From NCBI GenBank assembly GCA_049969615.1, contig JBMFOM010000001.1:1-64000 (forward strand): a stretch of DNA of 64,000 bases. The letters are read 5' to 3'. The position numbers are program-made. Within the stretch, counting starts at the first letter, position 1, and every line of letters starts with the position of its first letter. This document shows, in pieces, positions 6,001 to 12,000 of the stretch. The DNA is from a candidate division WOR-3 bacterium (lineage in GTDB: Bacteria > Hydrothermota > Hydrothermia > JBDRYB01).

Positions 6001-9000
6001 CGCGTAAATAGGGTTTGCTGTGGTGGATGTTATGCAATCGCCGGGTGTTCCGACGCCAGCAGCCACGTTGAACCGGGAGAGGACAGGGTTCAGGTTGGGG
6101 TTCGGGCAACCAGTGTTGTCGCCCATAATAACGAGGGAGCCTCCCCTGTTCACGAAAGCAACAAGGCTGTCCGCCTCGGCCGAACTGTAGGCTGAGTTCC
6201 AGGCCGAACCTAGGCAAAGGACTATAACCCTGTATGGGCTCAGGTCTATGTTGTTCACGCCAGCCACGGTGGTCTCAGGGGCGTATCCGCGGCCGATCAG
6301 GGTATCCCGGAGAATGCTGAACCACCCGTTCAACCTGTAATCCAGGTATATCCCGTGGGTTTGGTCCCACAGGACACCGCCGGCCTTGTTTTCCGCACCA
6401 GCATTTTGCCCTGTCGTCGCGAGGGAAACCACTGAGAACTGAGAAACCTCCTGACCCGTGGTCAAGTCTATCGCTGTTAAAAGAACCAATATCATATCAC
6501 ACCTCCACTTATAGGTTCACATTATAAGGCTGGACCGCGGGTGGAATCATTCAAGAGACATGGGGCTAAACCGGGAACGGAGCGGGTGCGTCGCACTCGC
6601 TCCTATTTCCCCATGACATACATCTCGTAAATGAACCTGGACGGCTCAAAATATCGGCCCCTGCTGCGCTTGGGATATGTGATGTATAGCTCTTCAAGCG
6701 CTCTGGTTACCGCGACATAGCAAAGCCTCCTCTCCTCAGCCATATCAGAAGGCTTTGTGAGCGCGGCACCAGAAGGGAAAAGGCCCTCTGCCATCCCCGT
6801 GAGAAAGACAATGGGAAACTCAAGCCCTTTAGCACCGTGGAGGGTCAAAAGCCTCACGCCCCCAGCGCCACGGACCTTCGCGGAGAGTTCCTGGCTCAGA
6901 GCAATGTGGGAGAGAAGACGCCTCGTGCCTCCCTTGCCAAAACCGGCCGCGAGAAACAGAAGTTCCTCTATGTTATCTCTCTCCATTATCCTGCCGGGGG
7001 TGTGTGCGTCCCCGAAAACCCTTGAATAACCTGTGAAATCATAGAAACGGCGCAGGAGTTCCTGAGGGGAAAGGTTCTCATATTCGCCCGGCCCAATGTC
7101 GTTGATGTATCTCCATAGGGCATCCAGGGCTAGGAGCTTATCCTCTGGAAGTTTCTTGCTCATTGTCGGCCTAGGCTTCTGCCTAAAACCTTGGGTGGCC
7201 AATTTTATCTCTTCACCCTTGAAACCGAGGAAATGCTTGAGCATAAGGGCAAAATCCTCACGCTCGCGCTGACCAGAAATAAACCGAAGGAAAGCGAGGG
7301 AAGCCCTGACCTCCGGCCTCCTGTAGAAGCTGGAGGCTCCTTCCATGTTGAAGGGAATTCTGCGCCTTGAGAAAGCGTCTTCAAAAGCCCTCGCCTGCGC
7401 GTTCATCCTGAAAAGAACACCAAAGTCCTCCGGATTCCTGCCCTCGTCCAGAAGCCTTTCCACCGTATCTGCGGCAAATGAGGCCTCATTGTCCGGATCA
7501 TCAAGCGCGACAAGGTGAACAACCTCCCTGTCTGCTCTCCTTATTGCAAAAACTGGGGAGGGTGGATCCGGATTATGGGCTATCAGGTTCCTGGCAAGGG
7601 AAAGTATCTCCTCATAGCTACGATAACTCCTGTTCAGACTAATTCTGTGCGGCTTGAAACGTTCCGCAAAAGCATTAAGGAACCTTGGAGAAGCGCCGCG
7701 AAATCCGTATATTGCCTGGAGGGGATCGCCCGTCGCCGTAAGCCATGCCCCACCCTCTGCCAAGGCCATTATGAGGCGGTACTGGGCCATGTTGAGGTCC
7801 TGAAACTCGTCAACCAGTATGAGCCGAAAAATTTTTCCCAGGTCATCCATGAGATCAGGGTTATCCCGGAGCGCCTGTCCAGCGCGCATTATGACATCGT
7901 CGTAATCCAGAGCACCCCAGGAAAAAAGAGCCGCCTGGTATCTCTCATAAAAACCCGCTACTCTTTTCTGCCAGGGGGTCTCCGCCCTCTCCTTGTATAC
8001 ACTGGGACCGATGAGATTGGACTTGGCTTTTGAAATTTCCCGGAGAATCGCGCCCGCCTGACGCTCCGAACCAGCGAGCTCACGCATGATCTTCAAACAG
8101 CTTTCCTGATCGAGGATTAGGAAATCCTCCGGAAAACCCTCCCGCTCAGCAACGGCAGAGAATATGCGGCCAGCGAGATAGTGCAGGGTGCCGACCCACA
8201 TCCTCCTTATCTCGCTCTCGGAGAGAAGGGGCAGGAGCTTTTCGCGGAGCTCACCCGCGCCACGGCCCGTGAATGTTGAGAGAAATACGGATTCTGGGGT
8301 AAAACCCTTCTCCCGGATGAACCACGCGGCCCTGGCCGCGATGCAGGTTGTCTTGCCGGTTCCGGCGCCACCAAGGATGAGAAGATGGCCCTCGTGTTGA
8401 ACCGCCTCGGCCTGCTCCGGTGAAAGCCCAACCAGGATTGGAGAGGCCGGCTTTGGTTCCTCTACCGGCCTGCCCATATCCACTACAGCATGCTGGATAG
8501 AAGATGATTCAAGGAACTCATCAAGCATGGCCTTTGCTGAGGCAGGCCGTTTCTCTGGAGAGGGATCAAGCGCCATAGTCAGGAAACGGTTAAGCCCTTG
8601 AGAGAGCTTTGGAATCGGTTTCGGCCTAGAAGAGACCATTTTCTTCCGCAAGCCTTCGTAGCTTTCATCCCAGAATGGTGGATGACCAGCCAAACACTCG
8701 TATATGACCGCGGCCGCGCTCCAAAGGTCGGATTGGGGAAAAGCATGGCCCTCCCAGACCTCCGGCGCCATGTAGAGGGGTGTCCCAGCCATGGAAGCGG
8801 AAAATCCTTCCTTTGAGATAATCGCGGCAAGGCCAAAATCCGTCAGCTTCACCCTCTCGCCTTCGGCCAAAAGGACATTCTCCGGTTTTATGTCCCTGTG
8901 AATTATTCCCCTCTCGTGCGCGTATTGGAGACCGGTGAGGATTCCTGTTGCTATGCGTATAGTTCTCGGCAGAGAAAGGGAACCTTCGTCAATGAGGCTC

Positions 9001-12000
9001 CGGAGGCTCTTGCCCTCAACATATTCCATTACCAGAACGAGCTTCTCATCTATGAGATCAGCGGAATAGAACCGGACTATGTTGGGATGATCCAGGGAAG
9101 CGAGGACCCGAGCCTCTGCCATCATGGCCTCTGCCTCGCGTTGCTTGGCACGGGATACCTTTATCGCGAATTCCCTCTGGATGATGGTGTCCAGCGCGAG
9201 AAAAACATCCGCGAACTGACCCCCTCCTATCCAGGAGAGAATTTCAAACTTACCAAACCTTTGCTGGATCAAGAGTAAATTATAATGGTTCCCGATGTAT
9301 AGGTTCCCCACAGGCTATTTCTGCATCTGGGCGATAAGATCATCCGGATCAAAAGAAGCCCAACAGATCTTAGAAAGTTCAAAACCGTCATCACGCCATT
9401 TGGCGTTGATGATCTTTATGCCCTTTTCCTGAATCCTCTCAACCGCTGGAACAAAATCCGCGTCGTTCGTGACCAGTATACCCACATCATAGACATTTTC
9501 CCAGGCAGAAGTAAAAAGGTGGGTTACGACGTGGGCATCAATCCCATTTTCGGCGCTGGCAATAGTGATCGCCTCCCTTGGCCCTATACAAGTTGGAGCA
9601 AGGGTTGGTGGTTCCAGAGCAAAAATTGAGCTTCTCAAGTTATGACAAGGGCCACGGTTATTCTAAGACCATTTGAGGAAGGGAACACTGACAATACCCG
9701 GTTATCTCCCTACCACGAACACCTGGGTCTCAACCCCCATGACCATTGCGGCATAGACCCCTGGCCCCAGGCCAGAGAGATTTATCCTCTGATCAGACCC
9801 CTCAATGGGATAAGACCTTATCAGCCTGCCGGTCGCGTCATAGACCACAAGACTGCCGGAGCAATCCTTGAGGGAGGCTACCGGGCCTGTCCCTGAATAA
9901 ACGATCCTGAACTGAGGTTCCCTTCCTGCGGCTGTCTCGCCAACCTGGAAGGGACAATTCCCATTCTCGTATGCCATAACAAGGTTTCCCATCGGCCCAG
10001 AGGCCACCAGGTCAGGACACATGTCGTTGTTCAGATCGGCTATGATAACAAGGTCAGCGTCGTATAGGTTGTCTACAATATCTATCATGAATCCACTGCC
10101 AGCGTAATAATAGCATATAACCCAGCCATCGGCCGCCCCAACGGCTATATCGCCGCCTGTGTGCGCGTTCAGCTCGCCCACATCAATGCCCTCGGCGCCA
10201 CCGGCGAGGCCAACGGCTTGCTTTGTAAAACCGCCAAACATGTTGCCCCAATAAACATAGGTGGCTCCTGCGTAGTAATCATTAACGGCTATATCCATGA
10301 AACCATCGTTGTTTATATCCATGGGGCCAACGCCCCAGGCATATTGCAAGGTAGCGTCCTGATAAATGAGCGTGAAGTTCTCTGAGCCATCATTCTTGAA
10401 AACCTGGAACGGGTCGCTCGCGGCTATCTCAAGGTGGCCATCGCCTTCCATGTCAAACAACCTGCAACCATGCGGAGAATAGAGGGACCCCACATATATC
10501 TGGGTAAAAACCCCGGCGCCATCGTTCCTGAACCATAGAACACCTCCACCTGTGCTGGCGGCTATGTCCAGGTCGCCATCCGAGTCAATATCGCCAAGGT
10601 TAACTTCCCACACAGACCCAGATGTGGGAAGGAGCTGGGATGCAAAAGAGGAACCATTGCCGGAATTATAGAATATATAGACACCTGAATAGGAGTAGTC
10701 GCCCGTAACTATGTCTTGGTCGCCATCCCCATCAAGATCGCCAGCATCCACGTAGAGCGGGTAGCTGGCAGAGCCAACATAGTGCTGGGCGAATGTCCAG
10801 AAACCAGAGTTCTCATACCAGTAGACCTGGCTTCCATAAGTGGCGGATATAAGGATGTCCGGCCTACCGTCTCCGTTTATCTCCGCAATAGCAATACCGT
10901 GGGGATAATTCAACCCAGATGCCACGACGTGCGTGGCATAAGCGCCAACAAGGAGCAAAAGGTTCATATCAACCTCCTGACAAAATGATAAAGCCGGGGC
11001 CAGACGGGGATCAAGCGGACGCGTTGCACCCGCCCGATTGGTCACAGTATAATTTAGGTGGAGGTGAACGTATGATATTATTTTGCGTTTTTCTCTTCCA
11101 GGCTTATTGGTGGCCAATGTTTGGCGTTGACCTTCAGAACACCCACCGTATGACGGGCAAAGGCGCGATGACTAGCTCTCCGAGCCAGAAATGGATATAC
11201 ACGGGTTCCTCAAATGATTGGGGAGAGACCGGAGTCTCCGTTTATGATGTCAACAGCGATGGTTTCACTGATGTTCTCACGGCATTCTGGAGTGGTGGCA
11301 CCGACGCGGTCAGGGGTTCCAACGGGACCCGGACATGGGCTGTGAATATAGGCGACGCGTGGAACTCTGTCCCAGCAATAATTGATGTCAACGGCGACGG
11401 GACAAAAGAAGTATACATTGGCTCATGGGGTGACGGAAACCTGTATTGCCTCAATGGGAACACGGGTGCGATTAATTGGACAAGAGCGACAGGCTCTTCG
11501 GTGTGCGAGAGCTCCCCGAAGGTCGCTGACCTAGACAACGACGGGGCATACGAGGTTGTGGTTGGAGCGTGGAGCGGTTATCTGCTCTGTGCGGACGCCA
11601 TAACCGGCGCGCAGGAATGGCAGATCAACCTGGGCGGTGATATAGATCATGCGCCCGCGGTCGCGAACCTTGATGGCGATCCAGCGCTGGAAGTCGTTGT
11701 CGGATCAGGCTCAACCCTTTACTGCAGGGACGGAGCCACAGGGGCCGCGCAGTGGAGCGCGGCGCTCGTTGGGTCATTCGGCTGGGCATCCCCACTCATA
11801 GCGGATGTTGACAACGACGGCTCGCTTGAGGTTGTGGCATCGGCCGGCGGCGTTCTCTACATATATTCGGCAGGCGGAACCCTGGAAAGACAGGTATCCC
11901 TTTCCTCAAGCTCAAATTCCTCTCCGGCAGCGGCGAACATTGACGCTGACCCTGCCCTTGAAATCGTGGTTGGTTCATCAAGCAACATTTATTGCGTTGA

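Follow-up and report, generated by a model that had tools for sequence, protein, structure and literature searches.

In bacterial Hanks kinases the kinase domain usually lies at the N-terminus and a sensing or localizing module at the C-terminus. For two of them a link to DNA has been described: excerpts of the work on B. subtilis YabT report a DNA-binding motif needed for activation and phosphorylation of a recombinase (PMC3708118, PMC6333020), and part of a Deinococcus study presents RqkA as a DNA-damage-responsive Ser/Thr kinase (PMC6052341). SF1A helicases, according to passages of PMC13646824 and PMC3797733, are autoinhibited by their 2B subdomain, a state normally relieved by partner proteins, and a section of PMC11341870 documents kinase-based defense set off by a phage replication protein (Gp59). 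Here we describe a kinase–helicase (KH) protein that joins both activities in one gene of a candidate division WOR-3 bacterium. The gene lies in a window of 64,000 nucleotides (contig JBMFOM010000001.1, positions 1 to 64,000), to which all coordinates below refer; all features are on the minus strand, and residue numbers are those of the 902-aa frame. Our literature search found no paper on this fusion, in line with an earlier survey, to which the protein appeared uncharacterized.

Domain architecture and start site

The open reading frame at 6603..9311 opens with GTG and encodes 902 aa with no internal stops. Its architecture is confirmed: a Hanks-type kinase at the N-terminus is followed by a variable linker and then by an SF1A helicase core of UvrD/PcrA type, which is complete; the survey had described an intact kinase joined to an intact UvrD-like helicase, and one frame, both Pfam domains and catalytic residues invariant in 47 fused homologues bear this out. 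The Ser/Thr protein kinase domain (residues 23–265, 8517..9245; Pfam Pkinase, E 6.2e-55) comprises AIK with Lys51 (9156-9167), HRDIKPEN (8877-8900), DFG (8832-8840) and the activation loop SASMAGTP (8778-8801), and the invariant residues are K51, E66, H138/D140/K142/N145, D158/G160, T177, E184, D195 and R255. Activation-loop Ser171/Ser173 are present in most KH members, but in genus g18 HGD replaces HRD and these serines are absent, so that activation-loop phosphorylation cannot be universal in the family. The linker of about 30 residues (266–295, 8427..8516) is poorly conserved and varies in length, with AF2 pLDDT below 50 at residues 273–287 and a dN/dS of 0.36 between the window's genome (G000) and G024, whereas the kinase and helicase modules stand at 0.060 and 0.059, respectively. 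Neither Pfam nor the AF2 model revealed a transmembrane or other sensor domain within the 902 aa.

Helicase subdomains 1A/1B (residues 296–553, 7653..8426; Pfam UvrD-helicase, E 2.2e-60, and alignment to PcrA and UvrD) contain Walker A GAGTGKT (8349-8369), DEFQD (7797-7811) and motif III (7716-7736), and subdomains 2A/2B (residues 554–902, 6606..7652; Pfam UvrD_C, E 9.6e-43) contain motif VI VAVTRA (6699-6716). Invariant among the 47 homologues are G317/G319/K320, D501/Q504/D505, D529, R564, R635, G829, E859/E860/R862 and R870, while Q300 of the Q motif is invariant in a set of 22 sequences and conserved in at least 90% of the 47. The AF2 model (mean pLDDT 87.4) has the full four-subdomain helicase fold and is matched by Foldseek to DNA-bound UvrD with TM 0.77–0.82 (on target; E ~1e-44); its pTM of only 0.67 leaves the kinase–helicase geometry undefined.

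This helicase departs from the canonical enzyme at two places. It aligns to PcrA 11–640 of 724 and UvrD 10–636, the protein stopping at the helicase core (PcrA residue 640) without a C-terminal tail. The site of the 2B ‘RGIG’ duplex-contact motif reads FLGFKGEE (residues 694–701, 7209..7232; HMMER alignment to 1pjr and 3lfu); the GIG column has no conserved Gly among 22 fusions, and G[IVL]G occurs there in 0 of 13 KH proteins vs 15 of 17 canonical UvrD proteins of the class. KH has lost the motif and represents a divergent paralogue of canonical UvrD, with neither motif nor tail, and not a plain second UvrD. Two further residues by the helicase ATP site, both bearing a hydroxyl group, set the family apart: S/T297, ahead of the Q motif, is present in 98% of KH vs 6% of UvrD, and motif III has T527 in 87% vs 0%. 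A canonical UvrD (an ORF read as 706 aa; open frame of 709 aa in the search) does lie on contig C102, as the survey had stated when it called KH a second helicase, and since every genome examined retains one, KH is an addition and not a replacement.

The KH coding sequence most likely spans 6603..9272 (889 aa, stop codon 6603-6605), and the TTG at 9272, rather than the GTG at 9311, is probably the true start. Of the 17 loci read, 15 have their first start codon 5–6 residues ahead of a G-K/R-F/Y motif (M/V/L-x4-5-G-K/R-F/Y), the position occupied by the window TTG, and only the frames of the window and L045 reach further upstream. The same start is indicated by P0002 (84% identical to KH, 889 aa), by the ESM Atlas entry for the KH sequence, which begins at residue 14, and by AF2 pLDDT below 50 over residues 1–13. 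The 13-codon extension (9273..9311), disordered in the model and with no counterpart in any homologue, is thus probably untranslated. Read from the sequence, a perfect TATAAT (9279..9284) ends 6 nt ahead of the TTG and might be the −10 box of a leaderless KH transcript; TATAAT-like boxes 6–8 nt ahead of the KH start also occur in G024, L042 (f10) and L041 (f6). A consensus promoter scan returned no full promoter at the KH start and did not report the TATAAT, which has no matching −35; the box is the sole basis of the leaderless TTG start that the survey had proposed. Its statement that the TTG is kept in G002 could not be confirmed under the genome labels used here, which may differ from the survey's: the homologous position in G002 is ATG, and it is the same-genus G024 that keeps TTG.

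Distribution and origin

Within the class the fusion is found in 43 of 64 genomes including G000, that is, in 42 of the 63 others, as the survey had counted, and in 9 of 12 families; f7, f8 and f9 lack it. The gene is cut by contig ends in G005, G025, G048, G060 and G063 and is split into two ORFs in G018. Its conservation is wider than previously described and extends through the WOR-3 phylum, with a single copy in each of 113 of 272 genomes. The survey's count of at least 55 clusters with both domains could not be confirmed as it stands: of the best 120 clusters listed (90% identity), 30 have both Pfam domains, and at 50% identity the fusion recurs in about 33 representatives, full-length or truncated. 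All 19 WOR-3 helicase modules fall into one group, as do all 18 WOR-3 kinase modules (SH-aLRT 100 in both cases), and f5 and f6 are sisters in both the KH and UvrD trees. With each module forming one clade, the trees point to one old fusion followed by vertical inheritance.

Of the survey's MAGs of two other phyla, some are, on sequence comparison, members of the same GTDB class under a different NCBI name, and others represent a fusion of independent origin. The helicase part of P0019, named ‘Hydrothermota’, is identical to that of same-class G051; a Blastocatellia MAG (Acidobacteriota) is truly out-of-phylum, and in its fusion P0033 (L075 6001-8895, 964 aa) the kinase–UvrD architecture arose independently. 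As leads only, the Atlas also lists bacterial clusters fusing Pkinase to helicases of other families, AAA_11/AAA_12, Viral_helicase1 and Helicase_C_2.

Genomic context

Across 17 KH loci no neighbor is common to three or more families. When 41 neighbors in 13 related loci were scanned against Pfam, 39 matched and 2 did not, the matches being all housekeeping or metabolic except one PIN-domain gene in L046. Neighbors vary by family, and operon-like overlaps tie KH to housekeeping genes; the context is not a defense island and offers no fixed partner gene. Nor does any neighbor or co-occurring gene of KH indicate DNA repair. LexA-bearing families comprise some with KH (f4, f10, f11, f19, f26) and some without (f13, f14, f28), and families without LexA are likewise divided (f2 and f5 with KH; f7, f8, f18 and f29 without). 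In this family comparison KH presence does not complement LexA absence, and KH is thus not a simple SOS substitute. The genome also encodes one PP2C phosphatase and two FHA-TPR proteins. Small indels distinguish the surroundings of KH in the window from those in G024, including an NYN-nuclease remnant as well as an ORF whose match to PDC-S70 is weak (2.6e-4).

Proposed function and alternatives

We infer, with a probability of roughly 40%, that KH is a signaling kinase tethered to DNA, its helicase module serving as sensor or localizer. This reading takes KH for a real bifunctional enzyme (predicted-active soluble kinase, flexible linker, predicted-active SF1A ATPase-translocase), encoded by a chromosomal WOR-3 gene that is lineage-specific, single-copy and vertically inherited and that would work alone. 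The helicase module would fill the C-terminal sensing or localizing role usual in Hanks kinases, loading on single-stranded DNA at gaps, stalled forks or flaps and translocating 3'-5' with ATP. Without the GIG duplex contact and the C-terminal partner-binding tail, the module would be more a translocase or sensor than a repair helicase, and the repair job would stay with canonical UvrD. Two or more KH molecules on the same DNA could then trans-autophosphorylate their activation loops (at Ser171/Ser173 in most members), and the tethered kinase would phosphorylate itself and nearby bound proteins such as SSB, RecA, the replisome or RNA polymerase. A DNA-structure signal would in this way become a phosphorylation signal, which the single PP2C phosphatase could reset. 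Counting against this reading are the HGD form of g18, the LexA pattern, the pTM of 0.67 and a context without repair genes, together with S/T297 and T527, which fit a kinase-gated helicase at least as well.

In such a gated enzyme the kinase would be the input and the helicase the output, cis autophosphorylation at the linker, S/T297, T527 or the 2B loop PTMSKKL (715–721) switching ATPase or unwinding, for example by relieving 2B autoinhibition, and KH would be an accessory helicase in replication or recombination whose activity is regulated. We consider this unlikely. In its favor, SF1A helicases show the partner-relieved autoinhibition described in parts of PMC13646824 and PMC3797733, KH has no partner-binding tail and its kinase could substitute for that control, both KH-specific residues lie at the ATP site, a ‘KPTFSKKL’-like 2B loop is conserved in the class-level subclade and well ordered in the model (pLDDT ~90), and purifying selection on the two activities is equal. 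Against it, the candidate 2B site is not conserved in P0022-P0031, the deeper half of the family, a dedicated unwinding enzyme would not be expected to lack the GIG contact, a cis-switch needs less than a full, invariant kinase core for substrate binding, and an N-terminal kinase with a C-terminal sensor is the usual Hanks-kinase logic. Gated helicase and DNA-tethered kinase are not mutually exclusive.

Single-gene phage defense, in which the helicase would sense phage DNA or replication intermediates and the kinase phosphorylate host or phage proteins to halt infection (cf. Stk2, PD-T4-6 and KKP-type systems), is distinctly improbable. The PADLOC matches that suggest it are strong (GajB 1e-75, mad6 2.2e-70, PD-T4-6 9.3e-66) but each spans a single domain, and the NCBIfam scores fall far under the family cut-offs (MAD6 171 vs 460 bits, PglW 96 vs 990), so that the likeness is at domain level only, as the survey had cautioned. 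The Gp59-triggered kinase defense in the cited section of PMC11341870 and the indels relative to G024 also speak for it; against it, five window neighbors searched with PADLOC gave no GajA-like or other partner, only weak NYN/HEC-09 and PDC-S70 matches, and the 41 neighbors scanned with Pfam included no defense partner. Single-copy occurrence in 113 genomes, gene trees that mirror families, overlaps with housekeeping genes and a dN/dS of 0.06 are further points against defense. Among the 80 kept of 221 viral-contig matches there is no fused copy, and none carries the helicase, as none extends past query residue 326. Least credible by far is an artifactual or decayed fusion, be it a chimeric assembly, a two-gene read-through or a dead scaffold in one module: the genomes are MAGs, in G018 the gene is split in two and contig ends truncate several other copies, but the idea is already contradicted by the same junction in 113 independent genomes (some assembled in 1–4 contigs), by its recurrence, among 1.84 billion representatives, in ~33 clusters at 50% identity, and by catalytic invariance and purifying selection in both modules.

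Comparison with known systems

With a kinase and a DNA motor long kept in one protein of an uncultured phylum, KH may link what happens on DNA directly to the phosphorylation of proteins. Its kinase shares the canonical core of PknB, StkP and PrkC (G-loop, AxK, αC Glu, HRD, DFG, GT/APE), with StkP (1.4e-35) and S. aureus/PknB-like kinases (~1e-35) as best PDB sequence matches. Unlike these, KH has no transmembrane segment, PASTA or other extracellular sensor, includes a genus with the non-RD form HGD, scores 203 bits against the PknB_PASTA_kin equivalog cut-off of 450, and groups separately from this phylum's membrane-anchored kinases. With UvrD, PcrA and Rep, KH has in common the full 1A/1B/2A/2B core, motifs Walker A, Ia, II, III, IV, V, VI and Q (at least 90% of 47), 30–32% identity and a PDB sequence E value of 2.8e-83 to PcrA; it differs in its N-terminal kinase, in a long-branched clade distinct from those genomes' own canonical UvrD, and in a pcrA equivalog score of 370 bits (cut-off 911; own-genome UvrD 726). 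The helicase resembles GajB of Gabija, and the kinase MAD6, PD-T4-6 and PglW, at domain level, but KH is vertically inherited without partner genes or island context. Acidobacteriota P0033 has the same domain order with intact Pfam domains and is likewise a solitary gene in metabolic surroundings. Its kinase and helicase both fall outside the WOR-3 clades, it is 30% identical to the window protein, and its helicase is of a different UvrD-like subfamily, with 36–54% identity (best segment) to helicase-only matches from many phyla in which no kinase region was matched. Similar in proposed working are YabT and RqkA, which by analogy, and as far as the excerpted accounts go, would share DNA-dependent kinase activity or location and targets in DNA metabolism (PMC3708118, PMC6333020, PMC6052341); the sequence relationship is the kinase fold only, and where YabT is membrane-anchored with a short basic juxtamembrane DNA-binding motif, KH is soluble and carries a whole ATP-driven DNA motor.

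Results and Discussion

The gene for the kinase–helicase protein (KH) is an uninterrupted frame of 902 codons from a GTG at window 6603..9311 on the reverse strand, and residues are numbered here on that frame. KH homologues share a start pattern (M/V/L-x4-5-G-K/R-F/Y) that coincides with the first ORF start in 15 of the 17 loci read; in the other two, the window and locus L045, the frame extends further upstream than the homologue-type start. The homologous position in the window is TTG 9272 (residue 14), the likely start, which would give a protein of 889 aa. An 84%-identical orthologue is itself 889 aa long, the ESM Atlas record of KH begins at residue 14, and residues 1–13 are disordered in the AlphaFold2 model. 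The survey's finding had a leaderless TTG start kept in genome G002; the TTG is kept, though in the same-genus genome G024, and G002 has ATG. A perfect TATAAT (9284–9279, reverse strand) ends 6 nt before the TTG, and boxes resembling it also lie ahead of the KH start in G024 and at loci L042 and L041. No −35 match accompanies the TATAAT and a consensus promoter scan reports nothing there (three sites in the region versus 1.9 expected), so that a leaderless KH transcript is only a possibility.

Residues 23–265 match Pfam Pkinase (PF00069) with 6.2e-55 and 186.8 bits against a cut-off of 31.7, along profile positions 2–261 of 263, which identifies a Hanks-type Ser/Thr kinase over the whole domain; the best PDB relatives of this first part are StkP and PknB-like kinases. 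The catalytic set, from the G-loop, AxK Lys and alphaC Glu through H-R-D...N, DFG and GT...APE to the alphaF Asp and alphaH-I Arg, is complete: G29/G31, K51, E66, H138-D140-K142-N145, D158-G160, T177, E184, D195 and R255 are all present and, save G29 (at least 90%), invariant in 47 fused homologues. R139 is conserved in at least 90% of these and is glycine in genus g18 of family f11 (genomes G056 and G057; loci L043 7949-10603 and L047 7973-10627), where HGD stands for HRD, the activation-loop serines are absent and the helicase motifs are intact. These orthologues are classed as a predicted non-RD kinase subgroup in which the catalytic Asp is kept.

The UvrD/REP N-terminal helicase domain (PF00580; residues 296–553, 2.2e-60, 205.1 bits) and the UvrD C-terminal domain (PF13361; E 9.6e-43 for the whole protein, best stretch 724–880, 147.4 bits) follow, and the Pfam scan of KH returned no kind of domain besides these and the kinase. 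The second part is best matched in the PDB by PcrA (2.8e-83, query 291–896 on chain residues 7–640), UvrD being found as well. Conserved helicase residues comprise Q300, G317-G319-K320-T321, F347-T348, D501-E502-Q504-D505, G528-D529-Q532, R564, K828-G829-L830-E831 and R862...R870; G317, G319, K320, D501, Q504, D505, D529, R564, R635, G829, E859, E860, R862 and R870 are invariant in the 47 fused homologues, and Q300 is invariant in a 22-sequence set and conserved in at least 90% of the 47. Both Pfam domains, the motifs (Q, I, Ia, II, III, IV, V and VI) and a four-subdomain fold (1A/1B/2A/2B) place this module in superfamily SF1A.

KH had been described as a second helicase next to the canonical UvrD on contig C102 of the window's own genome, and a canonical 706-aa UvrD ORF is indeed found there, aligning end to end with NCBIfam pcrA (positions 2–721 of 725, 726.2 bits). 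KH is no UvrD/PcrA orthologue of this canonical kind, as judged by equivalog cut-offs, the GIG motif and the C-terminal tail. Against the equivalogs (TIGR01075, TIGR01073, TIGR01074) its helicase scores 369.8 versus a cut-off of 911.2 for pcrA, 317.8 versus 1144.45 for uvrD and 317.2 versus 951.45 for rep, and its best stretches reach no further than the first half of each model. The 2B-domain "RGIG" motif contacts duplex DNA in UvrD and PcrA complexes. It aligns to FLGFKGEE in KH (residues 694–701), and G[IVL]G occupies this place in none of 13 KH proteins versus 15 of 17 canonical UvrD proteins of the class. KH moreover ends where the helicase core does (PcrA residue 640 of 724), so the C-terminal tail is absent, which in PcrA/UvrD bears the RNA-polymerase-binding domain (PMC3797733, PMC5397179). 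KH has no Pfam match to the Tudor-like RNAP-binding domain PF21196, a domain listed in precomputed annotation for most of the closest unfused helicases; it was not detected in the C102 UvrD either (Pfam, E ≤0.001), though that protein aligns up to pcrA position 721 of 725. Three conserved residues at the ATP site are specific to KH relative to UvrD: G314, S/T297 just before the Q motif (98% of fusions versus 6% of UvrD, which has Asn) and T527 in motif III (87% versus 0%, Val in UvrD). The canonical UvrD proteins of family f8 (L062–L065), a family without KH, are shorter (645–667 aa), carry EG[VL]G for RGIG and form a long branch of their own.

An AlphaFold2 model of KH from 47 homologues has a mean pLDDT of 87.4 and a pTM of 0.67, and pLDDT drops under 50 in just four places: residues 1–13, the activation loop (161–173), the linker (273–287) and 812–816. 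In Foldseek the second part superposes on DNA-bound UvrD/PcrA (2is6, 4c30, 3pjr) with TM(target) 0.77–0.82 over ~630 columns at an rmsd of ~5 Å, and fits apo/open forms more poorly (rmsd ~14 Å). Predicted docking of residues 14–272 against 288–902 (47-row alignments each), run without controls, gave a score of 0.00 and a mark of 0.32, values that weigh neither for nor against docking. Comparison of the window with G024 gives dN/dS ratios of 0.060 (kinase), 0.059 (helicase) and 0.36 (linker), which are rough since dS is 1.4–1.9, near saturation.

Close homologues of KH are named "candidate division WOR-3" by their sources. In the class, 43 of 64 genomes, the window's included, have a match across the kinase–helicase junction. 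The carriers represent 9 of 12 families, the three without KH being f7 (7 genomes), f8 (12) and f9 (2). Across the phylum it occurs in 113 of 272 genomes (E ≤1e-90), with exactly one match each, and in 80 of the 181 genomes that are at least 90% complete; family counts are, for example, 15/16 in f26, 30/31 in f27 and 8/11 in f19, and f13–f18, f21, f28 and f29 have none in this survey of 272 genomes. Some 33 fusions of the KH family (364–1722 bits) were retrieved among 1.84 billion representatives at 50% identity; the entries next in rank are plain UvrD/PcrA and giant proteins with several kinases. Among the 52 helicase parts placed in a tree, 19 fused modules from WOR-3 form one group (SH-aLRT 100) apart from 17 canonical UvrD of the class and 15 other PcrA/UvrD-like proteins, and in the kinase tree 18 fused kinase parts separate from 12 other kinases (SH-aLRT 100). 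All three trees (kinase, helicase and canonical UvrD) pair family f5 with f6 as its sister. The pattern fits one old fusion, which would have been followed by vertical descent and losses. Occurrence in other phyla, claimed earlier, is at least in part a matter of naming, since the helicase part of protein P0019, named "Hydrothermota", is identical to that of G051, a genome of the same class.

A split form of KH in the KH-negative families was considered and rejected: the standalone kinases of f7 and f8 (349–357 aa), which end in a hydrophobic segment, group with the genome's other kinases and not with KH, and the helicase of these families is the canonical UvrD, so that the pattern is one of loss or absence, not fission. 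In genome G018 (f6), KH is divided near residue 583–586 between neighbouring ORFs of 619 and 304 aa (C62:44-1753 and 1765-2622), owing either to a frameshift or stop in the MAG or to recent pseudogenisation.

A second kinase–UvrD fusion lies outside WOR-3. Protein P0033 (971 aa, 30% identical to the window protein) falls outside both WOR-3 groups in the kinase and helicase trees, the latter carrying a long-branch-attraction warning. Its sole full-length relative among the matches listed from 185,579 species genomes is in a Blastocatellia (Acidobacteriota) MAG, 71% identical; the other 79 of 80 loci kept match only the helicase part (query ~284 on; 36–54% identical over the best segment) and come from many phyla. 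The Acidobacteriota Pkinase–UvrD fusion reads as a 964-aa ORF with both Pfam domains (L075 6001-8895, forward strand). As judged from the sequences, the Blastocatellia fusion is independent of that in WOR-3, with a helicase from a different UvrD-like subfamily. This subfamily occurs widely as a free-standing gene with no conserved neighbour: at the 80 loci no neighbour was common to more than eight, and the only kinase motifs nearby were those of the fusion itself and of one kinase-like ORF 4 kb away. In the Atlas, two Acidobacteriota clusters (56 and 58 members) have Pkinase and UvrD-helicase in 100% of members. Further bacterial clusters in the Atlas combine Pkinase with another helicase in 96–100% of members, namely Viral_helicase1 (90 members), AAA_11/AAA_12 (83 and 473) and Helicase_C_2 (181, Chloroflexota commonest); with similarity scores of 0.81–0.84 these non-UvrD clusters are leads only. 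Taken with the Acidobacteriota fusion, the Atlas clusters suggest that the joining of a kinase to a helicase has been invented repeatedly and is a wider, undescribed theme.

Regions of ~8 kb on each side of the KH gene, where the contig allowed, were fetched in 16 genomes of nine families. Synteny with the window held only within the genus, and no neighbour family was common to three or more families across the 17 loci, which thus offer no conserved operon partner for KH. A Pfam scan of 41 neighbours at 13 related loci (L041, L047, L048 and L049 left out) returned matches for 39, all housekeeping or metabolic save a PIN-domain gene in L046. They include a Glu/Gln-type (class Ic) tRNA synthetase, Mur ligase, BacA, M48 peptidase, radical SAM, DRTGG/AAA_26, rhomboid, CheW/MCP and FeoB proteins and, one gene away in f11, DnaN; several lie directly against the KH gene or overlap it, as genes of an operon do.

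Around the window gene itself, a 107-aa ORF lies immediately upstream (9315-9638, reverse strand) and matches Pfam NYN (LabA-like nuclease) at positions 71–121 of 145 (E 1.9e-07), with weak PADLOC matches to HEC-09 and NYN; its N-terminal catalytic part is missing, and the ORF appears to be what is left of a gene. G024, of the same genus, lacks a counterpart, and there an FG-GAP gene directly precedes KH. The region is bordered by divergent genes for FG-GAP/beta-propeller repeat proteins (9702-11117, reverse strand, and 10919-12571, forward strand), whose maximal ORFs share ~200 bases, which places the true start of at least one of them further in. On the other side, three ORFs at 4499-6495 (reverse strand) separate KH from the biotin carboxylase gene: one of 326 aa with weak DUF4350 and Por_Secre_tail (T9SS sorting) matches and two of 165 and 160 aa without a Pfam match, the last with a weak PADLOC match to PDC-S70 (2.6e-4). 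None has a counterpart in G024, in which KH abuts accC, and 4499-6495 is a local indel beside an otherwise syntenic gene.

Elsewhere in the window's genome, contig C9 (~531–4368; L003, L004, L071, L073) carries a classical kinase–kinase–PP2C–FHA/TPR signalling cluster made up of two Hanks kinases (420- and 379-aa frames), a PP2C phosphatase (270-aa frame) and an FHA-TPR protein of 525 aa; C31 carries another FHA-TPR protein, of 601 aa. LexA was found in 184 of the 272 phylum genomes and is missing from f2, f5, f7, f8, f18 and f29 (E ≤1e-10). The LexA match of the window's genome (C21:1213-1581, L074) is below cut-off at 62.5 bits versus 110.95 and covers the S24 peptidase part only, in a 224-aa frame. 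KH as a replacement for a missing SOS system made a specific prediction, complementarity with LexA, which failed when tested and is rejected, since LexA is found both with and without KH.

On the sequence evidence, then, KH is established as a real and selected single-gene product, predicted to be bifunctional, that adds to UvrD and does not replace it; an artefact is excluded for practical purposes. We think it improbable that KH is a phage-defence protein. Its PADLOC similarity to PD-T4-6/Stk2-type single-gene kinases speaks for such a role at the level of domains only, as the survey had cautioned: the matches to GajB, mad6 and PD-T4-6 cover one domain each, and the NCBIfam defence equivalogs are far below cut-off. 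MAD6 and PglW were discarded at 171.2 versus 460 and 95.6 versus 990, respectively, and Gabija GajB on finding no GajA (OLD-family ATPase-nuclease) among five window neighbours (PADLOC) or the 41 neighbours at 13 loci (Pfam). Neither methyltransferase nor BREX genes turned up near KH in the window and related-loci Pfam scans. On viral contigs, searched with kinase-motif patterns of which one is KH-specific, all 80 matches kept of 221 lie within query residues 7–326 (kinase, linker and at most 30 helicase residues), and thus none of the 80 carries the helicase. Inheritance, gene context and copy number likewise disfavour a defence role.

In bacterial Hanks kinases the usual logic is an N-terminal kinase and a C-terminal sensor. 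Because of this logic, and of precedents in the DNA-activated YabT (PMC3708118, PMC6333020) and the damage-responsive RqkA (PMC6052341), we prefer, at a probability of roughly 40%, a reading in which the helicase module would act as a DNA-binding, ATP-driven sensor or localiser of the N-terminal output kinase. Its nearest rival, which we consider less likely, reverses the logic and has the kinase gate the motor, a version that agrees with the presence of the KH-specific S/T297 and T527 at the ATP site. Sensor and gated motor may also both be true.

Conclusions

We rate KH as two textbook enzymes in an undescribed, long-conserved combination. No description of a kinase–UvrD fusion was found in open full text, a scope outside which subscription journals and kinase-census supplements lie. 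The main texts of the bacterial STK atlas preprint (10.1101/2025.01.12.632604) and of Krupa & Srinivasan 2005 (PMC1262709) contain neither "helicase" nor "UvrD"; any domain-architecture table in the supplement of the former could list the architecture. The gene is currently labelled only "UvrD-helicase domain-containing protein", so that even an ordinary function, such as that of a regulated accessory helicase, would leave a useful annotation of a WOR-3 core gene. As a UvrD paralogue without the GIG motif and the partner-binding tail, KH also bears on the long debate on the 2B domain. Being a self-contained, soluble protein of ~100 kDa, it can be directly expressed and assayed, and this in vitro testability makes it of moderate to good interest.

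Bacterial sensing of DNA trouble is thought to run mainly through RecA/LexA. To our knowledge, DNA-linked Ser/Thr phosphorylation is represented by scattered cases only, YabT and RqkA among them, with sensing mechanisms that are unclear. KH unites a presumed sensor, the DNA motor, and an output, the kinase, in one polypeptide; both parts, under strong purifying selection, are intact throughout the phylum, and another phylum has arrived at this architecture anew. Tentatively, and with the odds against it, KH could be the founding phylum-wide example of unrecognised bacterial "motor-coupled checkpoint kinases" that arose several times independently. In such proteins a helicase or translocase would patrol DNA and report gaps, stalled forks or foreign replication intermediates by phosphorylating nearby proteins; the independent origins would be those of the UvrD-type fusions in WOR-3 and in Acidobacteriota, with the Upf1-like, viral-helicase-1-like and DinG/XPD-like motors of Bacillota and Chloroflexota as Atlas leads. 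The likeness to YabT would be functional only: YabT has a basic juxtamembrane DNA-binding motif and a C-terminal transmembrane helix, whereas in KH the kinase is followed by an acidic/neutral linker and then the helicase, without a transmembrane helix in the AlphaFold2 model. If checkpoint kinases of this kind exist, prokaryotes would have, in a Hanks kinase joined to an SF1 motor, a functional counterpart to ATR/DNA-PK-type signalling.
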